51,158 nucleotides of DNA from Candidatus Scybalousia scybalohippi (lineage in GTDB: Bacteria > Bacteroidota > Bacteroidia > Bacteroidales > P3). The translations under genes were made by a program, and so were the position numbers. The stretch is from assembly GCA_018065645.1 (NCBI GenBank), contig JAGHSX010000132.1, positions 1 through 51,158 on the forward strand. The letters are read 5' to 3'. Of this stretch, positions 2,505-47,641 are shown piece after piece. How positions within the stretch are numbered: the first letter of the stretch is position 1; every line of letters begins with the position of its first letter. The notes beneath the pieces are model-generated. The model ran no database searches. It saw only the letters and a program-made list of their open reading frames with translations, and was not told the origin of the DNA.

Positions 2505-2568
2505 AATTTTTCATTCTTTCAGTTTTTTTGTTTTTCACGAATCGCCCACCGATTCGCTTTATGAATAT

Positions 2569-2597
2569 ATGTTATCACAGAAAAACACAAATTGCAA
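2569..2597 (-). promoter_or_regulatory. promoter TTGCAA-17-TAACAT with TGn extension
   Basis: Minus strand reads ttgcaa-tttgtgtttttctgtga-taacat, followed by leader hairpin CGAATCG/CGATTCG (2538..2556) and AAAAACTGAAAGAA. Confidence 0.5.
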
Positions 2598-2777
2598 GAA
2601 AAAAAATCACACAAAATCAAAAAAAATTTAATTGTTAACTTTTTGTTAACCTTTGGCATAACTCACTGATAAATAAAACCAAATCCAAAAAATACAAGTG
2701 GGAAAGTAAAGCAAAAAGATAAAGGGAAAGAATAAACCAAAAAGAAAGAAAGTTTTTGTTTTTTCCGCCTGAACCAA

Positions 2778-2833
2778 GTGGTAATATACTACCACACTAG
2801 CAAACGTCAAAATATGTGGTAATATAATACCAC
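2778..2833. promoter_or_regulatory. pair of 18-bp palindromes GTGGTAATATA(C/A)TACCAC flanking a leftward TTGACG-16-TATATT promoter
   Basis: Site A 2778..2795, site B 2816..2833 (38 bp centre to centre). Between them, minus-strand TTGACG (2810-2805) and TATATT (2788-2783) overlap site A. Site B itself contains a plus-strand TATAAT (2823-2828). Confidence 0.5.
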
Positions 2834-2844
2834 ACAAAGCCAAA

Positions 2845-2871
2845 CCAATCCAAACCGACCCGTTGGATTGG
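2845..2871 (-). terminator. 9-bp perfect hairpin, probable intrinsic terminator for leftward transcription
   Basis: CCAATCCAA-(9 nt)-TTGGATTGG. On the minus strand it is followed by TTTGGCTTTGTG; on the plus strand it is followed by an A-rich tract, so it would not terminate rightward transcription. Confidence 0.45.
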
Positions 2872-3495
2872 GGAAAGCTGGAAAAAAGCATGCTTTTATC
2901 ACAAAAATAAACACATTTACCATGGTCATCTAAAATTCAGTGATATAACCTATACTATAAAACCACCCGTATCGTTTGGGGATAAGGGTGTCATGGGTAC
3001 GCTATGTATATGTGTGTTATATGTTTAGTGGATGTACTTATGATGTTGTGGGTGAGTTTAGATACAATAATCCCTATAAGGAGAGATTATATAGAAGATA
3101 TGAGTGTGATAGGATAGCATACGGTCAGCCTGTAATGCTTACTCATAGTAATCTGGGTTATGTCCTATAGGACTAAGGCTTCATACCACTCTATAAAAGA
3201 GACTCTTTGAAGTTCGTCACCCAACTGGCGGTCAATGGGTATTACCCCATTTACACATACAAGTTATGTCTTCCTTTTCTTGTATGTCCTATTGGTTAGA
3301 ATAGGTCGTGGGCTTTAACACAGGAACTCGGTAAGAGGTAATCCTTTTCAGGGGATACTTTATGCTATCTGCTAGCTGTTTGCCCCACCTCTAGGGTATA
3401 TTGGGAGTTTCTAACTCCCTTATACCAAATTATAAGGTGGTTGTCAAACTGACCCCCGGTGTTTGAGGAAATAGGGTGGTGTGGATGTCTGATAT
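2872..3495. ncRNA. candidate large structured non-coding RNA (~600 nt; class and strand unresolved, minus strand favoured)
   Basis: No SD-preceded ORF in any frame. Richer in G+C than its flanks: my hand count of 3301-3360 gives 27/60 versus 9/60 for 1-60. Dense perfect helices: 3385..3440 nested hairpin CCACCT/GGTATA/GGGAGTT-tct-AACTCCC/TATACC/AGGTGG; GTCCTATAGGAC 3162..3173; CCTATT/AATAGG 3288..3305; CACCC/GGGTG 2964..2990. Possible closing helix ACCACCC 2962-2968 / GGGTGGT 3474-3480. Confidence 0.45.
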
Positions 3496-3816
3496 TTATT
3501 GTCTTACAGCCTTCACTTCCTTGACATTCGGTGTATAGAAAGCAACATCACCATAAATGTAAAAGAAGGGCTTATCTTGGGCAGTTTGTGCCTTGATGTA
3601 ATCCAAAATGGTTTCATAATCTAATCGCATCTGACCACCATCGGTGTCAAACTCTAAAACACTACGACCAACAACACTCGCATATGCAATGTGCGATAGT
3701 GTCTCTAATCCAGAATTAGTTAACAATTCCTTAACAACCTTGTTCTTTAATTGGTCAGACACATACATAATTGTAGATGTCTTGCCTTCTTTGAATTTAA
3801 TGGTTAATTTGTACAT
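3496..3816 (-). CDS. hypothetical protein (106 aa)
   Basis: ORF track; start overlaps the stop of the upstream HTH gene. Confidence 0.6.
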   Translation of the reverse strand: MYKLTIKFKEGKTSTIMYVSDQLKNKVVKELLTNSGLETLSHIAYASVVGRSVLEFDTDGGQMRLDYETILDYIKAQTAQDKPFFYIYGDVAFYTPNVKEVKAVRQ

Positions 3817-3962
3817 TTTTCCTCCTTCTTAACATAAATGCGTGTCCCCTTAATTCTCATAAACGGAATAGCCCCACGTCTAATCCAGTCAGATGCCTTC
3901 CTTCTTGTAACGCCATAGGAATTGGCTATGTCATCTATTGTATAATTTATATTTTTCTTCAT
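3804..3962 (-). CDS. small excisionase/MerR-type helix-turn-helix DNA-binding protein (52 aa)
   Basis: Start trimmed to ATG 3962 (MKKNINYTIDDIANSYGVTRRKASDWIRRGAIPFMRIKG...) with AGAGGA SD. The pattern matches HTH_17/Xis-like proteins from memory. Confidence 0.55.
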   Translation of the reverse strand: MKKNINYTIDDIANSYGVTRRKASDWIRRGAIPFMRIKGTRIYVKKEEKCTN

Positions 3963-4184
3963 TATATATCCTCTTGTTTTGGTGGATGCTCTAGGTAACG
4001 CTCCTAGCGGGCCCGAAGGCAAGGGGTTTACAGTCCCTCCCGTCTCTTTAGCGGACTACGCATCCATTTGGCTGACGCAGCACAGCTTTAGTGAAGCTCT
4101 CACCAACAACGGTAAGTTTACAGCACCATTATCACTGTACCATCCTTTTGTGCACACTCGGATGGGGGTACCACTGGGCCAGCT
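3963..4184 (-). promoter_or_regulatory. ~220-nt GC-rich structured 5' leader of the leftward early transcript (candidate riboregulator, or part of a packaging site)
   Basis: Lies between promoter 4191..4219 and the ATG at 3962. Helices CTAGG/CCTAG (3991-4007), GCC-cgaa-GGC, AGCTT/AAGCT (4085-4099), GGT..ACAG/CTGT..ACC (4111-4141) and CATCC/GGATG (4141-4165). TTTACAG is repeated twice. Confidence 0.35.
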
Positions 4185-4190
4185 AATCAT

Positions 4191-4219
4191 ATATTAGCAC
4201 TATTTTTTATAAATGTCAA
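4191..4219 (-). promoter_or_regulatory. leftward early promoter TTGACA-17-TAATAT
   Basis: Plus strand has tgtcaa at 4214-4219 and atatta at 4191-4196, with an exact 17-nt spacer. Confidence 0.6.
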
Positions 4220-4225
4220 GATAAA

Positions 4226-4255
4226 AATGTATTTTAATGTATTTTAATGATATTT
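4226..4255. repeat. tandem 10-bp repeats AATGTATTTT x2 plus a degenerate third copy, between divergent promoters
   Basis: aatgtatttt aatgtatttt aatgatattt read directly; the period is about one helical turn. Confidence 0.6.
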
Positions 4256-4265
4256 ATAGACCGAC

Positions 4266-4294
4266 TTGACAAACGATTTTTTTTGTGATACTAT
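4266..4294 (+). promoter_or_regulatory. rightward promoter TTGACA-17-TACTAT with TGn extension
   Basis: ttgaca-aacgattttttttgtga-tactat. Confidence 0.6.
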
Positions 4295-4300
4295 GTGTTC

Positions 4301-4371
4301 AAGAGGCTAGGTCCAGCTCATTACTTGACCGAAAGCCTGTCCTACAAGGGTCTGCCTCTCTCGTTTTTTTT
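4301..4371 (+). ncRNA. short promoter-proximal transcript ending in a T8 run (candidate attenuator/terminated leader RNA)
   Basis: AGAGGC (4302-4307) can pair with GCCTCT (4354-4359), followed by ctcg + TTTTTTTT (4364-4371). The alternative pairing AGGCT(4304-4308)/AGCCT(4334-4338) plus GGTC/GACC suggests mutually exclusive folds. Confidence 0.35.
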
Positions 4372-4725
4372 GTAGGGTGCTATTGTAGGAAATAAATAAC
4401 AATCTTTTATTTTCGTTCTTGGGACATAGCAAAGGTTTTAGGTCATAAGAGTTATTCCTACTCAAAAAACTCTCGTGCTGGTGTTCTTGGCGACCAGTAT
4501 AAACAAAAACAAGAAAAACGGTTGTGCTTATGAGGAATGGCACAGAGTGGTGTAACAGGCACCACGAACAAACAGCTTCTGCTCAATTAGCATTAGGCGT
4601 AAGGTAGGAGTACCAAGGCATACGATAAGTGTCAGCTGATAGAAACCGTTGGGCAATACTGTGTATAGATTGTACTTTGGGATGCTCATAGTCGGCTATA
4701 GAGTATATTCCTCAACTATGCCTAT

Positions 4726-4775: not shown

Positions 4776-5582
4776 ATGAGGATAGAAATTAAAAATGTTG
4801 GCACAAAGGTGGTTCAAAACGAAGTCACCCAAGCCGAAATGGAAAGATTAGAAGAAAAAGCAAGATTAAATGGTGGTAACCACTCTTTAAGCTGGAAAGA
4901 ACGTTCTAGGTTGGCTAGAATTAAAAAATATGGGATAAATGCTATTGCACAGAATAAGTTCTTACATCCAGAGCCAGAAGTTCCCGCCGGAGTTCCAACT
5001 TTTGAAAATCCAAGTGGCACTATGACAGTAAAAGAAGCAGAAAAAAAAGAAGAAGAGGCTAAGGAAATCAAACACAGAATGGTAGATGAGGTTGATGCCG
5101 AGGGTAATCCACGTAGATATGATGAAGCAGGCGACCCAATATCGTTCAAAACAGAGGAAGTGACCGAAAAAGCGTTCCTTCGTGTTATAAAAGAGATTAA
5201 AACCGGTATTTCACCCTATCAAGCCTGTATAAATAAGCGTATTTTGCCTGATGAGTTCTTCAAAATGGCTAAAACAAGCCCGCATTTACAAAAAGAACTG
5301 GATGAGGCTCGTGAAGTATATGCAGAAAGCCAAGTGGCTAGGTTGGAAAAACTCAGTATGCAGTTGGAACACAACAAAATTGACACTTCTACCTATACTT
5401 CTGTGACAAATAACATAAAATGGCTGGTAGAAAAGCTGTTTCCTACACTTTATGGTAATAAAACTAAGGTTGAAACCTCTGTAACCCACAATTTAGAGAT
5501 TTCACAAGACAAATTACGTGAATTAAACGATTTATTGCGTGGAAACAAGCCTTTGGAAGTGGAATATCAGGAAGTTAAATGA
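4776..5582 (+). CDS. putative terminase small subunit (268 aa)
   Basis: Assigned mainly by position: first gene of the late operon, with its stop overlapping the terL start (ATGA). Charged coiled N-terminal half plus an HTH-like segment ISPYQACINKRILPDEFF. Confidence 0.45.
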   Translation: MRIEIKNVGTKVVQNEVTQAEMERLEEKARLNGGNHSLSWKERSRLARIKKYGINAIAQNKFLHPEPEVPAGVPTFENPSGTMTVKEAEKKEEEAKEIKHRMVDEVDAEGNPRRYDEAGDPISFKTEEVTEKAFLRVIKEIKTGISPYQACINKRILPDEFFKMAKTSPHLQKELDEAREVYAESQVARLEKLSMQLEHNKIDTSTYTSVTNNIKWLVEKLFPTLYGNKTKVETSVTHNLEISQDKLRELNDLLRGNKPLEVEYQEVK

Positions 5583-7054
5583 TAAACGAAGAGGTAATTA
5601 AACAGTTTGAAGCCAATCCTGGTGTCGCCCATCAAATACTTGGGTCTAGCTTTGAACAGTTTATTCGCTTCTTTCATTGGTATATGTACCACCAAGAGTT
5701 TATATTTAAGCCTTTTCACCTAATGATTATTAGAAAAGTGGAAGATATTGCCTTTGGTCGTAATGCTAAACGCAATTTAATGATAAATATTCCACCACGT
5801 TTCGGAAAATCTGCTATGATGAAGTATTTGTGTGCTTGGTGCTATATGCTCAATCCACAGTCAAACTGTATTTATACATCTTATTCTGAAGATTTGGTAA
5901 GCAATTTTTCTAAAGACATTCGGGAAATTATTGAAAGCCCGGCATTTAAGTCTTTTACTGGAATTAAGCTAAATAAAGCAAAAACTGGTGCTGATTATTG
6001 GGCAACAGAGCAAGGTGGTGGGTTTCGTGCTGCTCCATTGGGTGGTGCTTTGACTGGGTTCGGTTTCGGTATATCTGGTGATTCTTTTGGGGGCGTATGT
6101 TTAATAGACGACCCAGTTAAGGCGAGTAACGTTAAATCACAAGCAGAATTACAAAATACCGTAGATTATTACCTAAATACACTTAAATCTCGTGCTAATA
6201 ACCAAGCAAAAAGCCCAATTATCTGTATTATGCAGAGATTGGCTATAGAGGACTTGGCTGGTTATATCTTGGACAACGAGAAAGAAGATTGGGACTTGGT
6301 TAAGCTCCCAGCCCTCGATGAAGACACAGGAATTGCCCTGTGGGAAGAAAAGTTCTCGGCTAAGGACTTGCTTAAGCTCAAAAAACTCTCACCTTTCGTG
6401 TTTTATGGGCAATATCAGCAGGAGCCGATTGTCATTGGGGGTTCAGTTTATAAAACAGAGTGGTTTAAGTTCTATAATCCAAATGAACACTTTGATTACC
6501 AATTATCGTTTATTGCAGCTGATACAGCTCAAAAGAAGGGTGAAGGCAATGACTTTACCGTTATGCAGTATTGGGCTAAGACTTATGACAACAAACTCCA
6601 CCTAATTGATATGGTAAGAGGAAAGTTTGATGCAATGGAGCTTAAAGAACAGATTAAGCTTTTCTGGCAGAAGTGGGCTGGCGGTATAAATGGTTGCACC
6701 CCTTATGGGTTCTACATTGAAGATAAGTCTTCTGGTATCGGTGTAATCCAAGAAATTAAGAAAACAGACCCAATTCCTGTTATTCCAATAGAACGTAATA
6801 GACACAAAGATGAGAAGGGTATGTGGGTATCTATGGACAAGTTCTCTCGAGCTATGACCGCCATCCCATATATTGCGAATGGATGGGTCTATTTGCCTTT
6901 TGATGAAAAGTATGATATAAGTAGTAGTATATTAGCGGAGGCGGCTGCCTTCAAGGCTGATTTATCGCATAAGCACGATGACCAAATTGACCCGATGAAT
7001 GATGCGATAGACATAGCTTTTGGTGCAACTGGCTTAAGTTCTATCTTTATTTGA
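5579..7054 (+). CDS. terL: terminase large subunit
   Basis: Walker A-like PPRFGKSAMM, Walker B-like VCLIDDP, and C-terminal nuclease-like region with HKHDDQIDPMNDAIDIAF; size and position are typical. Confidence 0.9.
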   Translation: MINEEVIKQFEANPGVAHQILGSSFEQFIRFFHWYMYHQEFIFKPFHLMIIRKVEDIAFGRNAKRNLMINIPPRFGKSAMMKYLCAWCYMLNPQSNCIYTSYSEDLVSNFSKDIREIIESPAFKSFTGIKLNKAKTGADYWATEQGGGFRAAPLGGALTGFGFGISGDSFGGVCLIDDPVKASNVKSQAELQNTVDYYLNTLKSRANNQAKSPIICIMQRLAIEDLAGYILDNEKEDWDLVKLPALDEDTGIALWEEKFSAKDLLKLKKLSPFVFYGQYQQEPIVIGGSVYKTEWFKFYNPNEHFDYQLSFIAADTAQKKGEGNDFTVMQYWAKTYDNKLHLIDMVRGKFDAMELKEQIKLFWQKWAGGINGCTPYGFYIEDKSSGIGVIQEIKKTDPIPVIPIERNRHKDEKGMWVSMDKFSRAMTAIPYIANGWVYLPFDEKYDISSSILAEAAAFKADLSHKHDDQIDPMNDAIDIAFGATGLSSIFI

Positions 7055-7062
7055 GGTAAAAA

Positions 7063-8682
7063 ATGGCAAAAACAAAAAATAATAGTAAAGATGAAAAACA
7101 AAATAGTTTAGTAGATTTTGCTGGTAATGTTCAAGGTTGGGGGTTGGGCGGTAATCCATTTGCTCCACAAAACTCACGTTTAGACACTGTTTTCTTAAAT
7201 ACTCGGTGGAACTTAGTAAGTAACTATCGTTCTGTGTTGGCAGAAGCATACGCCGAGTATGGTTTGGTTCAAACTCTTGTAGAACAACCGGTAGATGATG
7301 CTTTCCGTTCTGGGTTTAAAATTGTAACAAATGAATTAGAAGATAGCCAAAAGATTGAATTGCAACGCTTTGTTGAAGAAAATCGCATTATTGAGGAATT
7401 AAAGAAATCTGTTGTGTGGGCTCGTTTGTTTGGTGGCGGTGGGCTTGTTATTATGGTAGAACAAAACCCAGCCAAACAATTTGATATTTCTAAAGTTAAA
7501 AAAGGCTCTCCGTTGGAGTTTAAGGCTGCTGATATGTGGGAACTCTACAAAGACCAAACAAACTTCTGGAATCCCTGGGAAGTACAAGACGAAAAGAAAA
7601 TGTACAACTATTATGGGGTAAGATTACACAGAAGTCGTGTTTTGCCTGTTTGTGGTAAAGAAGCTCCTTCATTTATTCGTCCTCGTCTTCGTGGGTGGGG
7701 TATGAGTGAACTAGAACGTGTTATTCGTTCTATCAACGCCTATTTAAAGAACCAAGATTTAATCTTTGAATTATTAGATGAAGCCAAAATTGACGTTTAT
7801 CAATTAAATGGCTTTAATACAGCGATGTTGACAGATAAAGGTACGAGAGTAGCCGAAAGACGTGTTCAGGTTTCTAACAGCCTTAAATCGTATTTAAATG
7901 CACTTATTTTGGATACCAACGACAAATATGAACAGAAACAACTGTCTTTCGCTGGTTTAAGTGATATTTTGACACAAATTCGTCAGGGGGTGGCTTCTGA
8001 CCTTAAAATGCCAATGACAAAGTTGTTTGGTGTGAGTGCGGCTGGTTTTAACTCTGGTGAAGACGATATTGAAAACTACAACTCAATGATTGAATCAGAA
8101 GTTCGTAGTAAGGTGAAATACTTGGTGGTCGATGTCTTAAAGATTTGTTGTCAATATTTGTTTGGGTTTGTTCCAGAAGATATGTCCATCAAGTTCAATA
8201 CACTTCGTATTCTCTCGGCTGAACAAGAAGAGAATATGAAAAACAGCCAATTTAACCGTTTAATTCAAGCATATTCAAACGGTTTGGTGAGCGTGGGTGA
8301 CTTTATGGTCGGATGTAACAATGAAGCCTTGTTGCCATTTACATATGCAGAAGAGGATATTCAGGCTATGAGCCAAAGTGGATATTCAAAAATCGGTATG
8401 GAAAAAAGCGATAAAAAAGGAAAGAAGGGTGGTTTGTTCAGTAAGTTCTTTGGTGGAGCCACAGAACCGGGCGAAGACCCAAATGCCGTTCAGGGAAATG
8501 GTATGAACTTTCCAAACAAGGCGAAGAAGGGAAACGAAGCCAACGAACAGGGCAAAGTAAAGGAAGTTGATGTGACTTCTAACAAGTTCACAACACCTGA
8601 CCGTGAGAAAAAACCTTTGCCTGAAGAATCTTTCCCATACAAGGGTCACAGAACGAAACGTTATGTTGAAGCAGGACACTGA
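7063..8682 (+). CDS. portal protein (DUF1073/HI1409-like) with long Lys/Gly-rich C-terminal tail
   Basis: 539 aa immediately after terL; WARLFGGGGLVIMV-type motif recalled for DUF1073 portals. Confidence 0.75.
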   Translation: MAKTKNNSKDEKQNSLVDFAGNVQGWGLGGNPFAPQNSRLDTVFLNTRWNLVSNYRSVLAEAYAEYGLVQTLVEQPVDDAFRSGFKIVTNELEDSQKIELQRFVEENRIIEELKKSVVWARLFGGGGLVIMVEQNPAKQFDISKVKKGSPLEFKAADMWELYKDQTNFWNPWEVQDEKKMYNYYGVRLHRSRVLPVCGKEAPSFIRPRLRGWGMSELERVIRSINAYLKNQDLIFELLDEAKIDVYQLNGFNTAMLTDKGTRVAERRVQVSNSLKSYLNALILDTNDKYEQKQLSFAGLSDILTQIRQGVASDLKMPMTKLFGVSAAGFNSGEDDIENYNSMIESEVRSKVKYLVVDVLKICCQYLFGFVPEDMSIKFNTLRILSAEQEENMKNSQFNRLIQAYSNGLVSVGDFMVGCNNEALLPFTYAEEDIQAMSQSGYSKIGMEKSDKKGKKGGLFSKFFGGATEPGEDPNAVQGNGMNFPNKAKKGNEANEQGKVKEVDVTSNKFTTPDREKKPLPEESFPYKGHRTKRYVEAGH

Positions 8683-26477: not shown

Positions 26478-26563
26478 ACTTGTGTGGCTAGGAACTCGAG
26501 CCCGAACAGCAGAACCTTACTGCCTGCCACACTTAACTTTAAGGACTACTAAAGGAGTAGAAA

Positions 26564-38651: not shown

Positions 38652-38750
38652 GGATTTAGAGGAATGCCCACATTCTTTTATTTCCCGATAGGAACAAGCC
38701 ACTCCCGCTAAAGGCAGAAATGTACAGCGAATACGGAGTGGCATATTTTT
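38652..38750 (+). ncRNA. candidate ~100-nt sRNA running into the 3' end of dnaB
   Basis: No ORF; ends at stem GCCACTCC (38698-38705) / GGAGTGGC (38735-38742) + atATTTTT, which overlaps the dnaB stop codon. Confidence 0.35.
38698..38750. terminator. bidirectional terminator-like hairpin between convergent units
   Basis: 8-bp GC-rich stem with a structured 29-nt loop; T-rich on both sides. Confidence 0.45.
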
Positions 38751-39963
38751 AACAAAACTTCATTAGTTGACAAACAAAGGTTCCATTAACAACCCCTCTT
38801 TTACCGTTTCTACACTTAGAAACTATATATTCTGTAGGGTCTCTTTCAACATCTTGGTTGCTATAATAACCATCACGATAAAGCAATATAACACAGTCCG
38901 CATCTTCTTCAATTCTTCCAGAATCTCTCAAATCAGACATTTTGGGTCTTTTATTTGATTCTTTTTCTGCAGCACGATTTATTTGGCAAAGACAAACTAT
39001 TGGGATGTTTAGTTCTTTTGAAACACTTTTTAACAACGCTGTTGTTTTACCAATTTCGTGAGCTAAGTTTCCTCTATCAGATACTTGAACTAATCCAATG
39101 TGGTCTATAAAAACAATATCACATTTCGCTTTCTTAACCATTTGTCTTATTTTTGCAATAACTTGTTGGCAATTTATACCACCTCTATCATCAATAACAA
39201 GGTTTTTAATGCTAAACAAAGCGTTTGCATAGGCATCAAATTCTTTTTCGCATTTTCCTTTTTCAATTTTCCAATGTGGAATTTCTCCTCTTATACAAGC
39301 AATTCTTTGCTTTAATTCTGTTGATTTCATTTCAAGGCTTATTATACCAACTTTATAATTTGGTTCTATATTGTTAATAATGGAACACATAAAAGCTGAT
39401 TTACCCATACCAGAACGAGCTCCAACAACATATAACCTCCCATTTTGTAAATCGTTTATATTATAATCAAGCATATCTATTCCTGTTTTAATACCAAGAA
39501 CACCATTGTTCATTTTATCTTGTAATTCTCTTAGCATAGCATCTGGAGAATCATCTATTTTTTCTATTAGGTCTCTTGTTGATATTTCAGACAATTTTGT
39601 AAAAACATCAACATCTTCCGTTTCTGCTTGTTCTAACAACTCTTGTGCCTTTGTCAGTGCGTTATATTTATCACTACTATCAATAAGTAGATTAACTTCT
39701 TTATCAACATTTCCAACAAAAGATAATCCTGATAGCTTATTTATGTATAATTTATCTTTTTCGTCTTTTGAAAGTGTTCTCATTACAAACGGCTTACCTT
39801 CTTCATTTGCCTTTAACATTCTTTCAAAAATAGTTGCGTTTTCTTCAAATAAAAAATGGTCAACCTTTAAATCTGGGTACAGGTTTATATCGTCATTATG
39901 AGCTAAAAATCTCCCAAGTATTCTTTGTTCAATTTCTTCATTAAGATAATTTTCAAAGTTCAT
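38749..39963 (-). CDS. dnaB: replicative DNA helicase DnaB
   Basis: GARSGMGKSAFMCSI Walker A; DIVFIDHIGLV Walker B; LCQINRAAE; RPKMSDLRDSGRIEEDAD arginine-finger region. Confidence 0.9.
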   Translation of the reverse strand: MNFENYLNEEIEQRILGRFLAHNDDINLYPDLKVDHFLFEENATIFERMLKANEEGKPFVMRTLSKDEKDKLYINKLSGLSFVGNVDKEVNLLIDSSDKYNALTKAQELLEQAETEDVDVFTKLSEISTRDLIEKIDDSPDAMLRELQDKMNNGVLGIKTGIDMLDYNINDLQNGRLYVVGARSGMGKSAFMCSIINNIEPNYKVGIISLEMKSTELKQRIACIRGEIPHWKIEKGKCEKEFDAYANALFSIKNLVIDDRGGINCQQVIAKIRQMVKKAKCDIVFIDHIGLVQVSDRGNLAHEIGKTTALLKSVSKELNIPIVCLCQINRAAEKESNKRPKMSDLRDSGRIEEDADCVILLYRDGYYSNQDVERDPTEYIVSKCRNGKRGVVNGTFVCQLMKFC

Positions 39964-41007: not shown

Positions 41008-41247
41008 ATGAATGAATTAGAATTAGTTAAAGAAAGTTTAATGACTATTGGTCATAGAGAGGGGTATAGTGTTACTAAGAACCTAGAAGCCATTGCAAAG
41101 GCAAAACTTCGCTTTTTTGGCGTTGGTGATTTTAGACGTTGCCCTTGCTCTCCAAAATCTGATAGGTCTTGTATTAGCGAAACCTGTCAAAAAGAAATAC
41201 AAGAAAATGGTGTGTGCCACTGCCACCTATTTGAGAGGGTAAAATGA
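41008..41247 (+). CDS. ferredoxin-thioredoxin-reductase catalytic-subunit-like small Cys-rich protein (79 aa)
   Basis: RRCPCSPKSDRSCISETCQKEIQENGVCHCHLFE, i.e. CPC...C-x4-C...CHC-x-LF, resembles the FTR-beta cluster/disulfide motif. Confidence 0.45.
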   Translation: MNELELVKESLMTIGHREGYSVTKNLEAIAKAKLRFFGVGDFRRCPCSPKSDRSCISETCQKEIQENGVCHCHLFERVK

Positions 41248-41669
41248 TGGAGTTTTTCATTAAGTGTAATCCACCAAAGACAACCGCCCAAGCAACGACA
41301 AGGGTGTTTAAGAACAAATACACAGGTAAAATGTTTATTGGTAAGTCAGAAAAGGGTCGTGGAGTTCGTGAAGAACTAATGGCTCTCTTGCGACCATATA
41401 CTCCAGAAAAACCCATTGATAAACCGATTCGTATGGTTGTTGAGTGGGGTTATCCATACCTAAAGAGTGTTCGCAAGCGTGATATTGGCAAGATACTGCC
41501 TTGTACATCTAGACCGGACTGCGACAACTTGGCAAAGTTTTTTTTGGACTGCCTAACTAGGCTTGGGTTTTGGACAGATGATAGCCTTGTTTATGATTTA
41601 AGGTTTAGAAAGTTTTATACCCAAGACGCTGGGATTGGTGTAAAAATAGAAGAAAATGAAGAAAATTAA
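41244..41669 (+). CDS. rusA: RusA-family Holliday junction resolvase
   Basis: RPDCDNLAKFFLDCLTRLGFWTDDSLVYDL matches the RusA catalytic Asp pattern; 141 aa. Confidence 0.8.
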   Translation: MMEFFIKCNPPKTTAQATTRVFKNKYTGKMFIGKSEKGRGVREELMALLRPYTPEKPIDKPIRMVVEWGYPYLKSVRKRDIGKILPCTSRPDCDNLAKFFLDCLTRLGFWTDDSLVYDLRFRKFYTQDAGIGVKIEENEEN

Positions 41670-41752: not shown

Positions 41753-42460
41753 ATGAGTACAATGAGTATTTTTAATAAATTAAATCACATTCAAACGACA
41801 TTAAAAGCACCAAAAGACAAGCATAATAACTTTGGCAACTATGATTACCGTAGTTGTGAGGGTATTTTGGAAGCTGTTAAACCTTTATTAGCTGAAACTG
41901 GTTTGGTTTTAACTGTTTCTGATGAAATGGTTGATGTTGGTGGTCGCATTTATGTTAAAGCCACAGCCACAATATATGATGGGGAAAGTGAAATTAAGAA
42001 CACAGCATATGCACGTGAAGAGGAAAGCAAGAAGGGTATGGATGCTAGCCAATTAACTGGTTCAACATCATCTTATGCTCGTAAATATGCTTTAAACGGA
42101 TTATTCTGTATTGATGACAACAGAGATGCAGATGAAACAAACACTCACGGAAAGGAAGACAACCAATTTGCAAAGGAAGTCTCAAAAGAGAAAGCCAGAG
42201 AAACACGTGAAAAGAACAAAAAGGTAGAAGAAGCTAGTAAATCAGAAGAAGGATTAAAACTTCGTTATGAAAGTGCAAAGGCTTGTATTGTAAAATTTAA
42301 AGATATTAGTCCTGTACGTGATGCAAAGCTCATTGAAAGAGCTACAGCATTGATGAATGACTTATTAGATGCTGGAATGGAAACAGAACGAAAGGATTTA
42401 TACGATAATTTAAATTCACGTATGTTGAAAACTGATGATGAATTACCAAGTTTTGCTTAA
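41753..42460 (+). CDS. erf: ERF-family single-strand annealing recombinase
   Basis: NFGNYDYRSCEGILEAVKPLLAETGLVL and TGSTSSYARKYALNGLF resemble conserved ERF motifs. Confidence 0.75.
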   Translation: MSTMSIFNKLNHIQTTLKAPKDKHNNFGNYDYRSCEGILEAVKPLLAETGLVLTVSDEMVDVGGRIYVKATATIYDGESEIKNTAYAREEESKKGMDASQLTGSTSSYARKYALNGLFCIDDNRDADETNTHGKEDNQFAKEVSKEKARETREKNKKVEEASKSEEGLKLRYESAKACIVKFKDISPVRDAKLIERATALMNDLLDAGMETERKDLYDNLNSRMLKTDDELPSFA

Positions 42461-46207: not shown

Positions 46208-46702
46208 ATGAAAGTTAAGGTTGTATCAGATACTCATTTTGGACACGAAAAACTTTTAATGTTTCGTGGGTTTAATTCTGTTGAAGAAATGAATGAAGCA
46301 ATAATTAAAAGATGGAATGATTGTATAGATAAAAACGATAGAGTTATCCATCTTGGAGATTTTGCTGTTGGTATGAAAGAAGAAGATATTGAAAAAATAA
46401 TTTCAAGATTAAATGGTAAGATAACTCTTATTATTGGAAACCACGACACGCATAGTAAGTTAAAGAATGTTTATATTAAATATTTTAAGTGCCTGTCAGG
46501 TTTATATGCTCCGCCTTATTATTTTACACACGAGCCAATAAATGAAAGATGTTTAGAAGAACAAAACACGAGAGAACCAACTACAAATGTTCACGGACAT
46601 TTACACAATAACGAATATTGTGGAGAAAAATATATCAATATGAACTATGATGTTGTTGGTTTATCTAATATGGTTAAAGAATTTGAATTAAAGGAGGTAT
46701 AA
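46208..46702 (+). CDS. calcineurin-like metallophosphoesterase (164 aa)
   Basis: VVSDTHFGH, IHLGDF, IIGNHD and VHGHLH are the four canonical MPP motifs. Confidence 0.75.
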   Translation: MKVKVVSDTHFGHEKLLMFRGFNSVEEMNEAIIKRWNDCIDKNDRVIHLGDFAVGMKEEDIEKIISRLNGKITLIIGNHDTHSKLKNVYIKYFKCLSGLYAPPYYFTHEPINERCLEEQNTREPTTNVHGHLHNNEYCGEKYINMNYDVVGLSNMVKEFELKEV

Positions 46703-46703
46703 C

Positions 46704-46901
46704 GTGCAATGGGAAGAACTTAAAAAAAAAGCAAAAGAACTTGGTGCAGAAATAATAAATGGTTATATTGTGTTTCGTTGCTTTTGTTTTTATGCTGACG
46801 GAACAATAGATATATACAAAAACAGTGATGACGGTTGGGAATTATTCATAGAGAATAGAACTTATGAACAAATTCTTATGATTATGGAGGCACTTAGATG
46901 A
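46704..46901 (+). CDS. hypothetical protein (65 aa, GTG start)
   Basis: AAGGAGG SD 6 nt before GTG 46704. Confidence 0.5.
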   Translation: MQWEELKKKAKELGAEIINGYIVFRCFCFYADGTIDIYKNSDDGWELFIENRTYEQILMIMEALR

Positions 46902-47641
46902 AACTATATCAAGGTGATTGTTTAGAAATAATGAAACAGATACCTGATAAGTCTGTTGATATGATTTGTTGTGATTTGCCGTATGGAACAACAGCGTGTA
47001 AGTGGGACACGATTATTCCGTTTGAACCATTGTGGAAGTCATACGAAAGAATAATTAAAGATGATTGTGCAATAGTTTTAACAGCAAGTCAGCCATTTAC
47101 ATCTGCTCTTGTAATGAGTAATCCAAAAATGTTTAAATATGAGTGGATATGGCAAAAAGCAGTCGGTAGCAACTTCGCCACAACAAAATATATGCCAATG
47201 AAAGAACACGAAAGCGTATTAGTGTTTGGGAAACAAATGCCAAAATACTTCCAAATAAAACAAGAAAGAGCAGAAAGTGGCAAATCTAGGTTAAACTATG
47301 GACATAAAGGAAGTAAAACTGGCGAAGCAAACGGAACTATGGACTTTAAAGGATTTACACCAGAAACTTATGATAAAAACCTAAGATGTCCATCAAGCGT
47401 TCAGTTTTTCAACAACAGAGAGTCTTGTCGTGGATTACACCCAACACAAAAGCCAGTTAAACTTATAGAATATCTAATTAAGACATACACAAATGAAGGA
47501 GATTTAGTCCTTGATAACTGTATGGGTAGTGGAACTACTGGTGTCGCCTGTAAACATTTAAACAGAGATTTCATCGGTATAGAACTTGACGAGAAGTATT
47601 TTAACATAGCAAAGAATAGAATTGAAGGAGAATTATTATGA
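46898..47641 (+). CDS. DNA N6-adenine/N4-cytosine methyltransferase (beta class), orphan
   Basis: N-terminal motif IV CCDLPYG; C-terminal AdoMet motif LDNCMGSGTTGVAC; HPTQKP. No adjacent restriction endonuclease gene. Confidence 0.85.
   Translation: MKLYQGDCLEIMKQIPDKSVDMICCDLPYGTTACKWDTIIPFEPLWKSYERIIKDDCAIVLTASQPFTSALVMSNPKMFKYEWIWQKAVGSNFATTKYMPMKEHESVLVFGKQMPKYFQIKQERAESGKSRLNYGHKGSKTGEANGTMDFKGFTPETYDKNLRCPSSVQFFNNRESCRGLHPTQKPVKLIEYLIKTYTNEGDLVLDNCMGSGTTGVACKHLNRDFIGIELDEKYFNIAKNRIEGELL

Follow-up and report, generated by a model that had tools for sequence, protein, structure and literature searches.

A probable new family of large structured RNA encoded by an accessory module in metagenomic phages

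Positions 2880-3447 of a 51,158-nucleotide stretch of DNA (the window) very probably encode a member of a new family of structured RNA, for which comparison of homologous phage sequences gives a model of at least 16 helices and one pseudoknot, all held by compensatory changes. The segment is best read, with moderate confidence, as the gene for a structured RNA of about 0.5 kb that would be transcribed leftward and act in trans. A large structured RNA had been proposed for the block at 2872-3495 by an earlier, sequence-only reading; the present analysis supports that proposal, having found neither a decayed gene nor a lack of covariation. A literature search found no paper describing the element.

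Homologues were collected from IMG/VR, JGI, ENA and Logan contigs using nhmmer and pattern scans. The 15 distinct sequences obtained, all from metagenomic phages, fall into about seven clades, the main ones 47-60% identical to one another; the family is small and comes from related phages. An exact 22-mer scan matched locus L010 only, and three matches to a degenerate pattern (L017, L022 and L023), which had weak or no nhmmer match outside the pattern, were dropped as chance. GenBank phages gave no match by blastn of the block or megablast of 20 kb, and IMG/VR gave none for either flanking protein (106 aa and 187 aa). A word-index protein search with the 106-aa protein found one relative, which does not carry the element. 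In the close relative L024, whose 106-aa protein is 94% identical, the element is absent and homology ends exactly at 3495.

The phage contigs carry terminase, portal and capsid genes. The element is located in a leftward small-gene region adjoining the terminase genes, where orphan DNA methyltransferases and further small genes of accessory type surround it. Its orientation with respect to terS is constant in all homologues. The flanking genes vary between loci, and those on the left (downstream) side differ from phage to phage. On comparison of the loci, 2880-3447 is a self-contained accessory module whose edges coincide with conserved promoter blocks. The carriers appear to be one clade of rumen or gut phages, with habitat taken from sample names. 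TerL is only 37% identical to that of Klebsiella phages, so no host can be inferred from it; a Shine-Dalgarno sequence (AAGGAGG) precedes the 106-aa gene, and the sequence indicates a host that uses such signals.

Within 2872-3495 the plus strand contains ORFs of 64, 37 and 30 aa only, and the tails of two minus-strand ORFs reach into it, so that the block, previously described as ORF-free, indeed holds short ORFs only; the ORF-poor gap is broader, at 2505-3495. No Pfam or PHROG family was matched by the ORFs of the window. It is extremely improbable that the block is a decayed protein gene, or AT-rich intergenic DNA with chance hairpins. A minus-strand frame in L010 is free of stops for 135 aa, and weak blastx matches were returned (E = 7e-4 and 0.03), but that frame is broken in all other members, the closest relatives of L010 included, and the longest frames elsewhere are 51-99 aa and shift in strand and frame between homologues. 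Substitutions have no 3-base periodicity (p = 0.11-0.94), and sequences that are 71% identical as nucleotides are only 36-40% identical as amino acids, whichever strand is translated. No ORF is conserved, and the element, as its sequences compare, is non-coding, with conservation that comes in patches.

The block had also been described as GC-rich and dense in helices. The first description holds for 3100-3500 (0.41-0.44 vs 0.27-0.28 in the left flank) but fails for 2900-3100 (0.34-0.36) and against the right coding flank (0.36-0.41). The second is confirmed by folding energies of -185.8 kcal/mol on the plus strand (z = -3.0) and -150.4 kcal/mol on the minus strand (z = -2.6); none of 20 shuffled sequences folded equally well in either case, and the fold thus beats shuffles on both strands (z about -3).

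Pair counting on the unbiased MAFFT alignment A5 gave 94.2% of cells paired, against 81.4% after shuffling and 34-47% in slid controls, with 18 pairs changed on both sides versus 5.0 +/- 1.8 shuffled (0/500). A hand alignment of 15 sequences and 104 column pairs, which was fitted to the structure, has 98.9% of cells paired; shuffling lowers this to 69.1 +/- 1.1% and sliding to 34-43% (controls computed in Python). Its cells comprise 1077 Watson-Crick, 14 G-U, 10 A-C and 2 other combinations, and compensatory Watson-Crick changes are present in 83 of the column pairs so fitted. In a swap test, pairing was 100% within one sequence and 41-67% when the 5' and 3' strands came from different clades. 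Helices set on the first seven sequences were all kept in the eight sequences fetched later, with new compensatory changes. Whole-element MAFFT alignment followed by RNAalifold gave a poor consensus (covariation term +0.8) because the variable arms misalign. Covariation in support of the helices is strong, and as the sequences stand the compensatory changes are inexplicable by coding or chance. The word GTGGTA/TACCAC is over-represented in the window, with 35 occurrences for 19 expected; as a repeated protein site behind the conservation it was rejected, since it leaves the covarying helices unexplained.

The left part of the comparative model begins with a variable arm (2943-3059) of 30-120 nt depending on clade in the alignments, which in the window includes a second, diverged copy of the ACCACCC-loop-GGGTGGT hairpin motif (2962-3005). 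Helix Pa (3067-3090; ATAATC/GATTAT around CCT-ata-AGG) covaries in all clades. It is followed by the pseudoknot strand GAAGA (3094-3098), whose partner TCTTC (3269-3273) lies in the loop of helix Pi; the two are replaced by differing complementary pairs in six clades, reaching 9 bp in L028 (GACGGTAAG/CTTACCGTC). Helix Pb (3099-3147; TATGAGT/ACTCATA), recovered by RNAalifold, by pair counting on the plain MAFFT alignment and by the hand alignment, encloses helix Pc (AGCAT/ATGCT; 3116-3120 with 3135-3139) and its conserved loop ACGGTCAGCCTGTA. Helix Pd (3162-3173; GTCC-tata-GGAC, GTCCTATAGGAC) is replaced elsewhere by GTTCT/AGAAC, TTCCC/GGGAA and GTCCAA/TTGGGC. Helix Pf (3179-3212; CTTCA/TGAAG), in which 5/7 pairs are changed on both sides by pair counting on the MAFFT alignment, closes a conserved internal loop (TACCA ... 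ACTCTT) holding hairpin Pe (CTCT/AGAG; 3189-3192 with 3198-3201), with covariants CTTGC/GCAAG, CTAT/ATAG, CTGT/ACAG and CTTA/TAAG.

The conserved segment ACTGGCGGT (3224-3232) directly precedes hairpin Ph (3234-3251; AATGGG/CCCATT), which varies as AGGTG/CACCT, AGGC/GCCT, AGGCTT/AAGCCT and GCTC/GAGC and is missing from the L008 clade. Helix Pi (3255-3287; ACATACAAG/CTTGTATGT), with a 15-nt loop, has compensatory changes in 9/9 pairs and further variants in the later-fetched sequences. It is followed by helix Pj (3288-3305; CCTATT/AATAGG), with CCTGT/ACAGG, TGTAG/CTACA, CTGGG/CCCAG and TGGTG/CACCA in other members. Pd and Pj had both been picked out in the sequence-only reading and are borne out by covariation. 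Helix Pl (AGAGGT/ACCTCT; 3334-3339 with 3387-3392; covariants GAGTGGT/ACCACTC and GGTAGG/CCTACC) encloses the conserved run GGTAATCCTTTTCAGGGGATACTTTAT and hairpin Pm (ATCC/GGAT; 3341-3344 with 3353-3356; covariants ATCT/AGAT and AGTTGG/CCAACT). In the clades of L008, L032, L026 and L011 the 3' domain is of another kind and contains helices Pk and Po. At 3393-3419, the block GTATATTGGGAG, conserved in all clades, is followed by a hairpin (3403-3419; GGGAGTT-tct-AACTCCC in the window) that has its own sequence in each clade and a constant position.

Three other pairings proposed earlier fared less well. The 19-bp interrupted hairpin can be formed at 3385-3440 of the window, but other members do not conserve it in that shape. 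In the comparative model the outer arm, ACCTCT, has AGAGGT (3334-3339) as its partner, and the inner hairpin (3403-3419) coincides in part with the -10 box and start site of the conserved leftward promoter described below. The CACCC/GGGTG hairpin (2964-2990) is likewise present, but it is an extra copy, seen in the window alone, of a motif that otherwise lies at 3452-3481. The long-range closing helix (2962-2968 with 3474-3480) was rejected, as it joins arms of two direct-repeat copies and has no comparative support: neither GGGTGGT on the 5' side with ACCACCC on the 3' side (L008 clade) nor the reverse order of the window has a compensatory change, and substitutions break it in L019, L020 and L015. 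The arm at 3474-3480, moreover, is situated upstream of the leftward promoter and so beyond the element.

The right edge of the module is a predicted leftward promoter of sigma-70/sigma-A type (3419-3447, minus strand), with a -35 box TTGACA (3447-3442), a 17-nt spacer ending in TTTGG, a -10 box TATAAG (3424-3419) and a predicted start near 3412. TTGACA-17-TAnnnT is present in all members at an invariant position (13/15 tabulated, L015 and L032 read by hand), and the promoter of L011 was also picked up independently by a promoter scan. Most members have T[A/T]TGn before the -10 box (overall TTGACA-17-TGnTAnnnT), which matches the Gram-positive -16 region of sigma-A promoters. Just upstream of this promoter is the hairpin motif ACCCCC-N16-GGGTGGT (3452-3481), conserved in all members as AAACCACCCC-N17-GGGTGGTATAGG; it is probably the terminator or insulator of the transcript of the 106-aa gene, external to the RNA. 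Inserted genes part hairpins of this type from the promoter in L015, L020 and L028.

At the left edge, the A/T block GGAAAAAAGCATGCTT (2880-2895) is conserved in all 16 sequences; it may serve a rightward promoter as an UP-like element, or form the 3' end (AAGCAUGCUUUUUUCC) of a leftward RNA. The candidate rightward promoter TAAACA-17-TAAAAT (2908-2936, plus strand) scores 9/12 matches in the scan; its position and T[A/C/T]AACA box are conserved, the spacer is 16-17 nt, and its -10 box fits TAnnnT in about 10 of 15 members by eye. Further left, the 9-bp hairpin CCAATCCAA/TTGGATTGG (2845-2871) that had been pointed out earlier is present with a U-rich tail on the minus strand, and may terminate the leftward RNA. 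Comparable leftward terminators occupy this position in L008 and L016; none is evident in L010, L019, L015 or L020. The proposal that a leftward transcript ends at this hairpin is plausible, but that transcript would start from the element's own promoter and not be the tail of the 106-aa gene's transcript. Operator-type palindromes and another leftward promoter lie directly downstream of the element, and past its left end come an AT-rich stretch and CGAATCG repeats, of which L011 has six. The downstream genes have predicted promoters of their own, TTGACG-16-TATATT (2810-2783) and TTGCAA-17-TAACAT (2597-2569), the latter also in L011.

In the working model, host RNA polymerase would start at TTGACA-17-TGgTATAAG near 3412 and transcribe leftward through the folded core, and the RNA would end at or beyond the A/U block (2895-2880) and the hairpin (2871-2845), giving about 520-570 nt. 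Like the phage-borne ROOL and GOLLD RNAs, for which this has been proposed, it would then serve in trans as a scaffold that works on the machinery of host or phage, either by itself or together with proteins.

Leftward synthesis has somewhat better than even chances on present evidence; inside the helices the G-U and A-C cells stand at 14:10, and the folding z-scores are alike on the two strands. A less likely alternative is synthesis of this structured RNA from the plus strand, with an A/T-rich UP-like sequence at 2880-2907, TAAACA at 2908-2913, TAAAAT at 2931-2936, a start near 2943 and an end at the clade-variable hairpin (3403-3419) and a U-rich tract before 3447; the strong leftward promoter would then give a controlling or interfering antisense transcript. 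Its UP, -35 and -10 blocks are conserved, but the -35 box is weak (4/6 matches), the -10 box is degenerate in L026, L025, L038, L028, L020 and L011, and a perfectly conserved consensus promoter would be left aimed into the gene from the opposite side. The right-end hairpin, which differs by clade in sequence and keeps its position, resembles a terminator together with the U-rich tract, and L011 has a clean one (CACCCCC...GGGGGTG, then T7); all genes adjoining the element, and the tRNA of L008, are nevertheless leftward. On the plus strand, helix-flanking positions have 40 G-U against 13 A-C, where composition expects about 1.6:1, L028 and L031 have internal U-G pairs in helices Pb, Pa and Pd, and a 4-bp inner extension of Pc pairs on the plus strand only, kept via A-U to G-U and C-G to U-G changes; this bias is not seen inside the helices proper, where the two kinds of cell are balanced. 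RNAalifold slightly prefers the plus strand (-63.8 vs -55.4). Against that strand, its unpaired bases are rich in U (34-41%) and poor in A (19-26%), a composition unusual for structured RNAs.

It is unlikely, though conceivable, that both strands are expressed from the facing promoters as a sense/antisense pair of large RNAs with mirror-image folds. Folding of both strands would explain why the helices are nearly pure Watson-Crick (1077 cells against 14 G-U and 10 A-C), since a G-U pair tolerated on one strand costs an A-C mismatch on the other. If true, the element would be a bidirectional RNA gene or switch of an undescribed kind, and by analogy with ROOL and GOLLD the products could form RNA-only multimers.

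Because the flanking genes vary, the leftward RNA would probably act in trans and not as the leader of one particular gene; we give this part of the model, argued from variable neighbours alone, about even chances. Action in cis is fairly unlikely. Here the element would be a long structured leader or convergent-promoter switch for the leftward downstream genes (the 187-aa gene at 2504-1941 and beyond), working by termination and antitermination or by interference between facing promoters about 470 bp apart. The two conserved promoters that face each other across the element fit this, as do the operator-type palindromes and further leftward promoter directly downstream and the near-pure Watson-Crick helices, expected were both transcripts important. 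Read-through is possible in the several members lacking a leftward terminator, whereas the window, L008 and L016 have one between the element and the downstream genes. Those genes, moreover, change from phage to phage and have their own promoters, and known leaders of this kind manage with far less than 16 helices and a pseudoknot folded from about 500 nt.

A transcript-primed replication origin, resembling RNA II of ColE1-type plasmids, is very unlikely. In such plasmids a strong promoter yields a pre-primer, folded and about 550 nt long, whose end is marked by a conserved A/T block near repeated protein-binding motifs. The distance of about 530 nt from promoter to A/T block, the CGAATCG repeats and AT-rich stretch past the left end and the near absence of G-U pairs from the helices all match, but the genes for DnaB helicase (38749-39963), RusA and ERF are distant (38.7-42.5 kb), no initiator gene is linked, the convergent promoter lies where the leftward RNA would end, whereas RNA I of ColE1 covers the 5' end, and the whole module is missing from L024, which is unexpected of an essential origin.

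The new RNA would join a short list. Only about a dozen classes of RNA that exceed about 400 nt and have a complex conserved fold are known from bacteria and phages, and ROOL, GOLLD and OLE were recently shown to form unexpected RNA-only assemblies. We know of no phage-borne large RNA class with a known function and, to our knowledge, a convergent promoter pair and near absence of wobble pairs are unreported for the known classes. As a further unrelated class, the element would be a candidate for structure determination, and it offers clean module edges, its own consensus promoter, a pseudoknot supported in six clades and natural relatives with and without the module as experimental assets. 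Since it lies among methyltransferases and accessory genes, it may take part in host takeover or in counter-defence.

The element was compared with known families using Rfam 15. The ROOL, GOLLD, OLE, HEARO, raiA and intron models had no match at E<=10 in the window or in L008, L010, L011, L015, L019 and L020, and the RNase P, tmRNA and 6S models had none; other matches were at chance level (snoR74, RT-6 and mir-4703; E = 0.006-7, far under gathering scores). ARAGORN found no tRNA or tmRNA in the window. Of the two outcomes left open by the sequence-only reading, membership of ROOL or GOLLD is thus unsupported and a new class is supported. ROOL (RF03087), first seen in rumen metagenomes and encoded in phages and prophages, is about 580-660 nt with many helices and pseudoknots, comparable to the phage-borne module of about 520-570 nt with its 16 helices and one pseudoknot, so that the two share a size of about 0.5-0.66 kb. 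ROOL has no linked protein (PMC12286853), nor has the module. The ROOL covariance model, with its P1-P19 structure, is however unmatched at gathering score or E<=10, and the conserved blocks of the new element (CATACCACT, AGACTCTTTG, GGCGGT, GGTC..CTGTA and TATTGGGAG) are unrecognised by any Rfam model. ROOL is often found by tRNA genes or islands; of the two loci of the new element that were scanned for tRNAs, L008 has one about 700 nt off and the window has none. In the sequences collected, the new element, unlike ROOL, comes from a single phage clade.

GOLLD (RF01998) is also a large phage-borne structured RNA, expressed during infection, but it is larger, often over 800 nt; its covariance model has no match at E<=10 and its universally conserved 3' domain was not found here. 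The likeness to ColE1 RNA II/RNA I lies in a folded transcript of about 550 nt, a consensus promoter, a second promoter on the opposite strand and overlapping transcripts. The new element differs in being distant from replication genes and dispensable in a close relative, and its opposing promoter overlaps the far (3') end of the transcript, in contrast to that of RNA I, which overlaps the 5' end. Facing promoters with 60-220 nt of overlap are found in coliphage 186 (pR/pL) and pCF10 (prgQ/prgX), where they encode proteins or small RNAs. These switches share with the new element two conserved convergent promoters, overlapping transcripts and operator palindromes close by; unlike them, the module has no regulator gene and places 470 nt of ornate, covarying structure between its promoters.

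Protein-family searches found phage genes in the window, which is a piece of a phage genome. The small terminase (terS, 4776-5582), large terminase (5579-7054) and portal (7063-8682) genes are on the plus strand, and to their left are small leftward genes encoding an HTH_17 protein, a 106-aa protein (3496-3816) and, after a gap, a 187-aa protein (1941-2504). Only short ORFs are present in 2505-3495, in agreement with the ORF-free block at 2872-3495 claimed by the sequence-only reading. That reading's G+C enrichment holds for 3100-3500 (0.41-0.44 vs 0.27-0.28 in the left flank), but the right coding flank is similar and 2900-3100 reaches just 0.34-0.36. The block is helix-dense as described, 2872-3495 being more stable than dinucleotide shuffles on both strands (plus, -185.8 kcal/mol, z = -3.0; minus, -150.4 kcal/mol, z = -2.6). 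No Rfam 15 family, including ROOL and GOLLD, matched the block at gathering score or at E<=10, which leads to the "new class" branch of the earlier proposal, and ARAGORN found no tRNA or tmRNA there. The sole above-threshold Rfam match in the window is an int-alpA RNA (RF02996) at 26481-26545 (plus; 37.7 bits vs gathering 35.8, E = 2.7e-4).

A second non-coding island (3956-4721, 766 nt) separates the HTH gene from terS; it gave no Rfam match and may be another RNA or a cos/pac region. Its 52% GC block (3957-4076) is 74% identical to 7465-7584 of L010 (L numbers denote related phage loci from metagenome collections). The close relative L024 has just 58 nt in place of the island; at the equivalent position, L008 carries a tRNA gene (6864-6936, minus).

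Loci L002-L010 were obtained from IMG/VR as large-terminase relatives, and DNA resembling 2860-3500 is present in L010 and, more weakly, in L008. The similarity is patchy, with invariant GGTCAGCCTGTAAT, CATACCACT, AGACTCTTTG, GGCGGT and GGTAATCCTTTTCAGGGGATACTTTAT alternating with variable stretches. A degenerate pattern built from three conserved blocks retrieved extra copies from IMG/VR and JGI metagenomes (two matches in a genome collection were chance matches), and small-terminase homologues traced to contigs gave nine more loci from ENA and Logan assemblies, seven of whose nine copies are mutually distinct. Besides truncated copies, the family has 15 distinct full-length sequences; it divides into about seven clades, the main ones being 47-60% identical to one another. 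No DNA similar to the block was found in GenBank phages, and the class has a narrow range: its carriers form a single phage clade, from metagenomes of rumen or gut type. The large terminases of L028 (6798-9122), L040 (2100-4589) and L041 (7301-9790) are 774-829 aa long vs 491 aa in the window, which suggests an insertion, e.g. an intein or homing endonuclease.

The element (2880-3447) keeps a constant orientation relative to terS across loci. In the window it adjoins the 106-aa gene; L010, L031 and L039 have an N6/N4 DNA methyltransferase gene beside it, L032 has a PAPS-reductase-like gene, and other loci have various small ORFs. The element is absent from the related phages L004-L007, the more distant L040-L042, and L024, which shares 94% identity with the window in the 106-aa protein and loses homology to it exactly at 3495; natural variants with and without the module thus exist. 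A leader for one downstream gene fits poorly with the variable neighbours and the absence in L024. A transcript-primed replication origin is unlikely given that the module is dispensable and the replication genes are far away. Distant genes of replication, recombination and modification in the window are a DnaB-type helicase (38749-39963, minus), RusA (41244-41669) and ERF recombinase (41753-42460), and further ones are a metallophosphoesterase (46208-46702) and an N6/N4 DNA methyltransferase (46898-47641).

The element is non-coding, and a decayed protein gene, the alternative that the sequence-only reading had set against its own proposal, is refuted. Nucleotide identity (71%) far exceeds amino-acid identity (36-40%) on either strand; no frame is shared, the longest stop-free stretch (51-135 aa) shifting in strand and frame among members and the 135-aa frame of L010 being interrupted in its closest relatives. 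Substitutions are spread evenly over the three codon positions (7 member pairs, p = 0.11-0.94), and no Pfam or PHROG family matched the ORFs of the window copy.

Sixteen helices and one pseudoknot were defined by side-by-side reading of four clades. In the window, Pa pairs 3067-3075 with 3079-3090 (outer ATAATC/GATTAT, inner CCT/AGG), and Pb (3099-3105/3141-3147) encloses Pc (3116-3120/3135-3139), the loop of which is conserved. These are followed by Pd (3162-3165/3170-3173), Pf (3179-3183/3208-3212), which closes the internal loop TACCA...ACTCTT and holds Pe (3189-3192/3198-3201) within its loop, Ph (3234-3239/3246-3251), Pi (3255-3263/3279-3287), Pj (3288-3293/3300-3305), Pl (3334-3339/3387-3392) and Pm (3341-3344/3353-3356). 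The pseudoknot joins 3094-3098 to 3269-3273, its 3' strand lying within the Pi loop, and in the L008, L032, L026 and L011 clades Pk and Po take the place of some of the 3' domain. Two helices previously picked out by eye, 3162-3173 and 3288-3305, are confirmed, as Pd and Pj, respectively. A long hairpin noted at 3385-3440 is not conserved as such, and a closing helix proposed between 2962-2968 and 3474-3480 has no support because its arms belong to two copies (the 2964-2990 hairpin and GGGTGGT at 3474-3480) of one hairpin motif, which in all members is found just outside the element on the right.

Four lines of evidence indicate that the element is a structured RNA. Given an ordinary MAFFT alignment (A5), RNAalifold predicts Pb, Pc, Pd and Pf unaided. 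In A5, 94.2% of cells are paired vs 81.4% when shuffled (slid controls 34-47%), and 18 pairs changed on both sides vs 5.0 +/- 1.8 in shuffles (0/500 reach 18), bearing out the covariation expected of the proposed RNA. When strands were swapped between clades, just 41-67% of positions paired vs 100% for strands of the same sequence (70/70, 75/75, 87/87, 76/76). All helices were kept, with new compensatory variants, in 8 sequences fetched after the model was fixed (Pi CTTATCGG/CCGATAAG and CTGTATGCA/TGCATACAG, Pf TGTCA/TGACA, Pm ATCT/AGAT, Po CGTGG/CCACG), and the pseudoknot changes to AAGTG/CACTT in L031 and, in L028, to an entirely different 9-bp GACGGTAAG/CTTACCGTC. A hand alignment (15 sequences, 104 column pairs), fitted to the structure and so biased toward it in a way that A5 and the later sequences are not, has 1077 Watson-Crick, 14 G-U, 10 A-C and 2 other cells, or 98.9% paired vs 69.1 +/- 1.1% with partners shuffled among sequences (maximum 71.9%; slid 34-43%), with Watson-Crick to Watson-Crick changes on both sides in 83 column pairs. 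Covariation support is unusually clean for the class size, and the pseudoknot is supported in six clades.

On the right, the element is bounded by the block TTTGTCAAAT, whose minus strand reads as the -35 box TTGACA, followed in every member, at exactly 17 nt, by TAnnnT. The predicted window promoter has its -35 at 3447-3442 and its -10 (TATAAG) at 3424-3419 (minus), with a start at about 3412. The other -10 boxes, tabulated with L015 and L032 read by hand, are TAACTT (L010), TATTCT (L039), TATCAT (L031, L025), TATACT (L038, L034), TAGGAT (L011, also picked up independently by a promoter scan), TAATCT (L008, L019, L020, L028), TACCAT (L026, L032) and TACTAT (L015). The spacer mostly ends T[A/T]TGn; T-R-T-G ahead of a -10 box corresponds to the "-16 region" of Gram-positive promoters. 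Conservation limited to hexamers, TG and spacing would be the signature of a working sigma-70/sigma-A promoter. The host uses Shine-Dalgarno sequences, as the strong AAGGAGG preceding the 106-aa gene shows.

Just outside the element on the right, all members carry the hairpin motif AAACCACCCC-N17-GGGTGGTATAGG. Written as AAACCACCCC-N17-GGGTGGTATAGGTACGCTAT, it covers about 50 nt upstream of the leftward promoter (window 3452-3481) and its loop is conserved; the window has a second, diverged copy in the element's variable arm (2962-3005). Small leftward genes are inserted between promoter and motif in L015, L020 and L028, and therefore the promoter is assigned to the element, the motif to the unit upstream. 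In L015 (340-1600) the motif flanks an inserted gene of about 530 nt on both sides, with the L020 and L028 insertions at the same point, a pattern that points to a recombination hot spot or a junction between modules.

An invariant block, GGAAAAAAGCATGCTT (2880-2895), bounds the element on its left. Past this block, the hairpin proposed earlier as a leftward terminator is present in the window (2871-2845, minus strand, tail UUUGGCUUUG) and is terminator-like, as are hairpins in L008 and L016, but no obvious terminator was seen in several other members. Further left are, in this order, a CGAATCG motif, operator-type palindromes and the next genes' own leftward promoters. The CGAATCG/CGATTCG 7-mer, which may be a protein-binding site or iteron, recurs about -40 to -100 and again about -400 from the element's left end (window 2538-2556; L011, six copies in 300 nt; L008, L019, L020, L028, L031, L032, L034). 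Two copies of the palindrome GTGGTAATATA[C/A]TACCACAC 38 bp apart (2778-2797, 2816-2835) resemble a pair of repressor operators and overlap a leftward promoter (TTGACG-16-TATATT, 2810-2783); L019, L015, L020, L032 and L011 have the same-type palindrome GTGGTATTATAATACCAC, and L008, L031 and L034 have GTAATTAC-n-GTAATTAC repeats instead. TTGCAA-17-TAACAT (2569-2597, minus) precedes the 187-aa gene, with TTGCAT-17-TATATT as its L011 counterpart; genes left of the element thus have their own promoter.

Facing the leftward promoter is a weaker promoter-like array (A/T block, T[A/C/T]AACA, 16-17 nt, TAnnnT; window candidate TAAACA-17-TAAAAT, 2908-2936, plus), conserved in position and with a degenerate -10 box in about one third of members. 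On the plus strand, a clade-variable hairpin (3403-3419) followed by a U-rich tract is terminator-like, and L011 has a clean terminator. Structural strand indicators conflict. Neither strand is favoured by MFE z-scores in four clades (plus -2.4, -2.6, -4.3, -0.9; minus -2.8, -3.2, -2.2, -2.7) or by G-U vs A-C cells within helices (14 vs 10). The plus strand is favoured by G-U vs A-C beside helix ends (40:13; composition expectation about 1.6:1), RNAalifold energy (-63.8 vs -55.4) and an inner 4-bp Pc extension that pairs on plus only. The minus strand is favoured by terminal C-A to U-A changes in Pk, Pc and Pj and a Pl G-U extension, which pair on minus only, and by unpaired positions that are A-rich on minus and U-rich on plus. 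We lean slightly toward an RNA made from the leftward strand because the consensus promoter is invariant, some members have candidate leftward terminators, and all neighbours, including the L008 tRNA, are leftward.

The two convergent promoters could form a cis-acting switch, a reading that carries more weight than the transcript-primed origin, which in turn outranks the refuted decayed gene. Because its ends are promoter-defined, its neighbours differ between phages and it is missing from near-identical L024, the element is most likely an independent accessory gene whose product would be the RNA itself, acting in trans. Two odd features are worth testing, the face-to-face promoters and the near absence of wobble pairs.

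No publication describing the element was found in the literature. The large, ornate, phage-borne RNAs ROOL (RF03087) and GOLLD (RF01998) have no assigned functions, with rumen samples as the first source of ROOL (PMC12286853). These are the nearest known RNAs to the element, which is likewise large, ornate and phage-borne but is excluded from membership of either by covariance-model tests, and we rate it as a new class among large structured phage RNAs.
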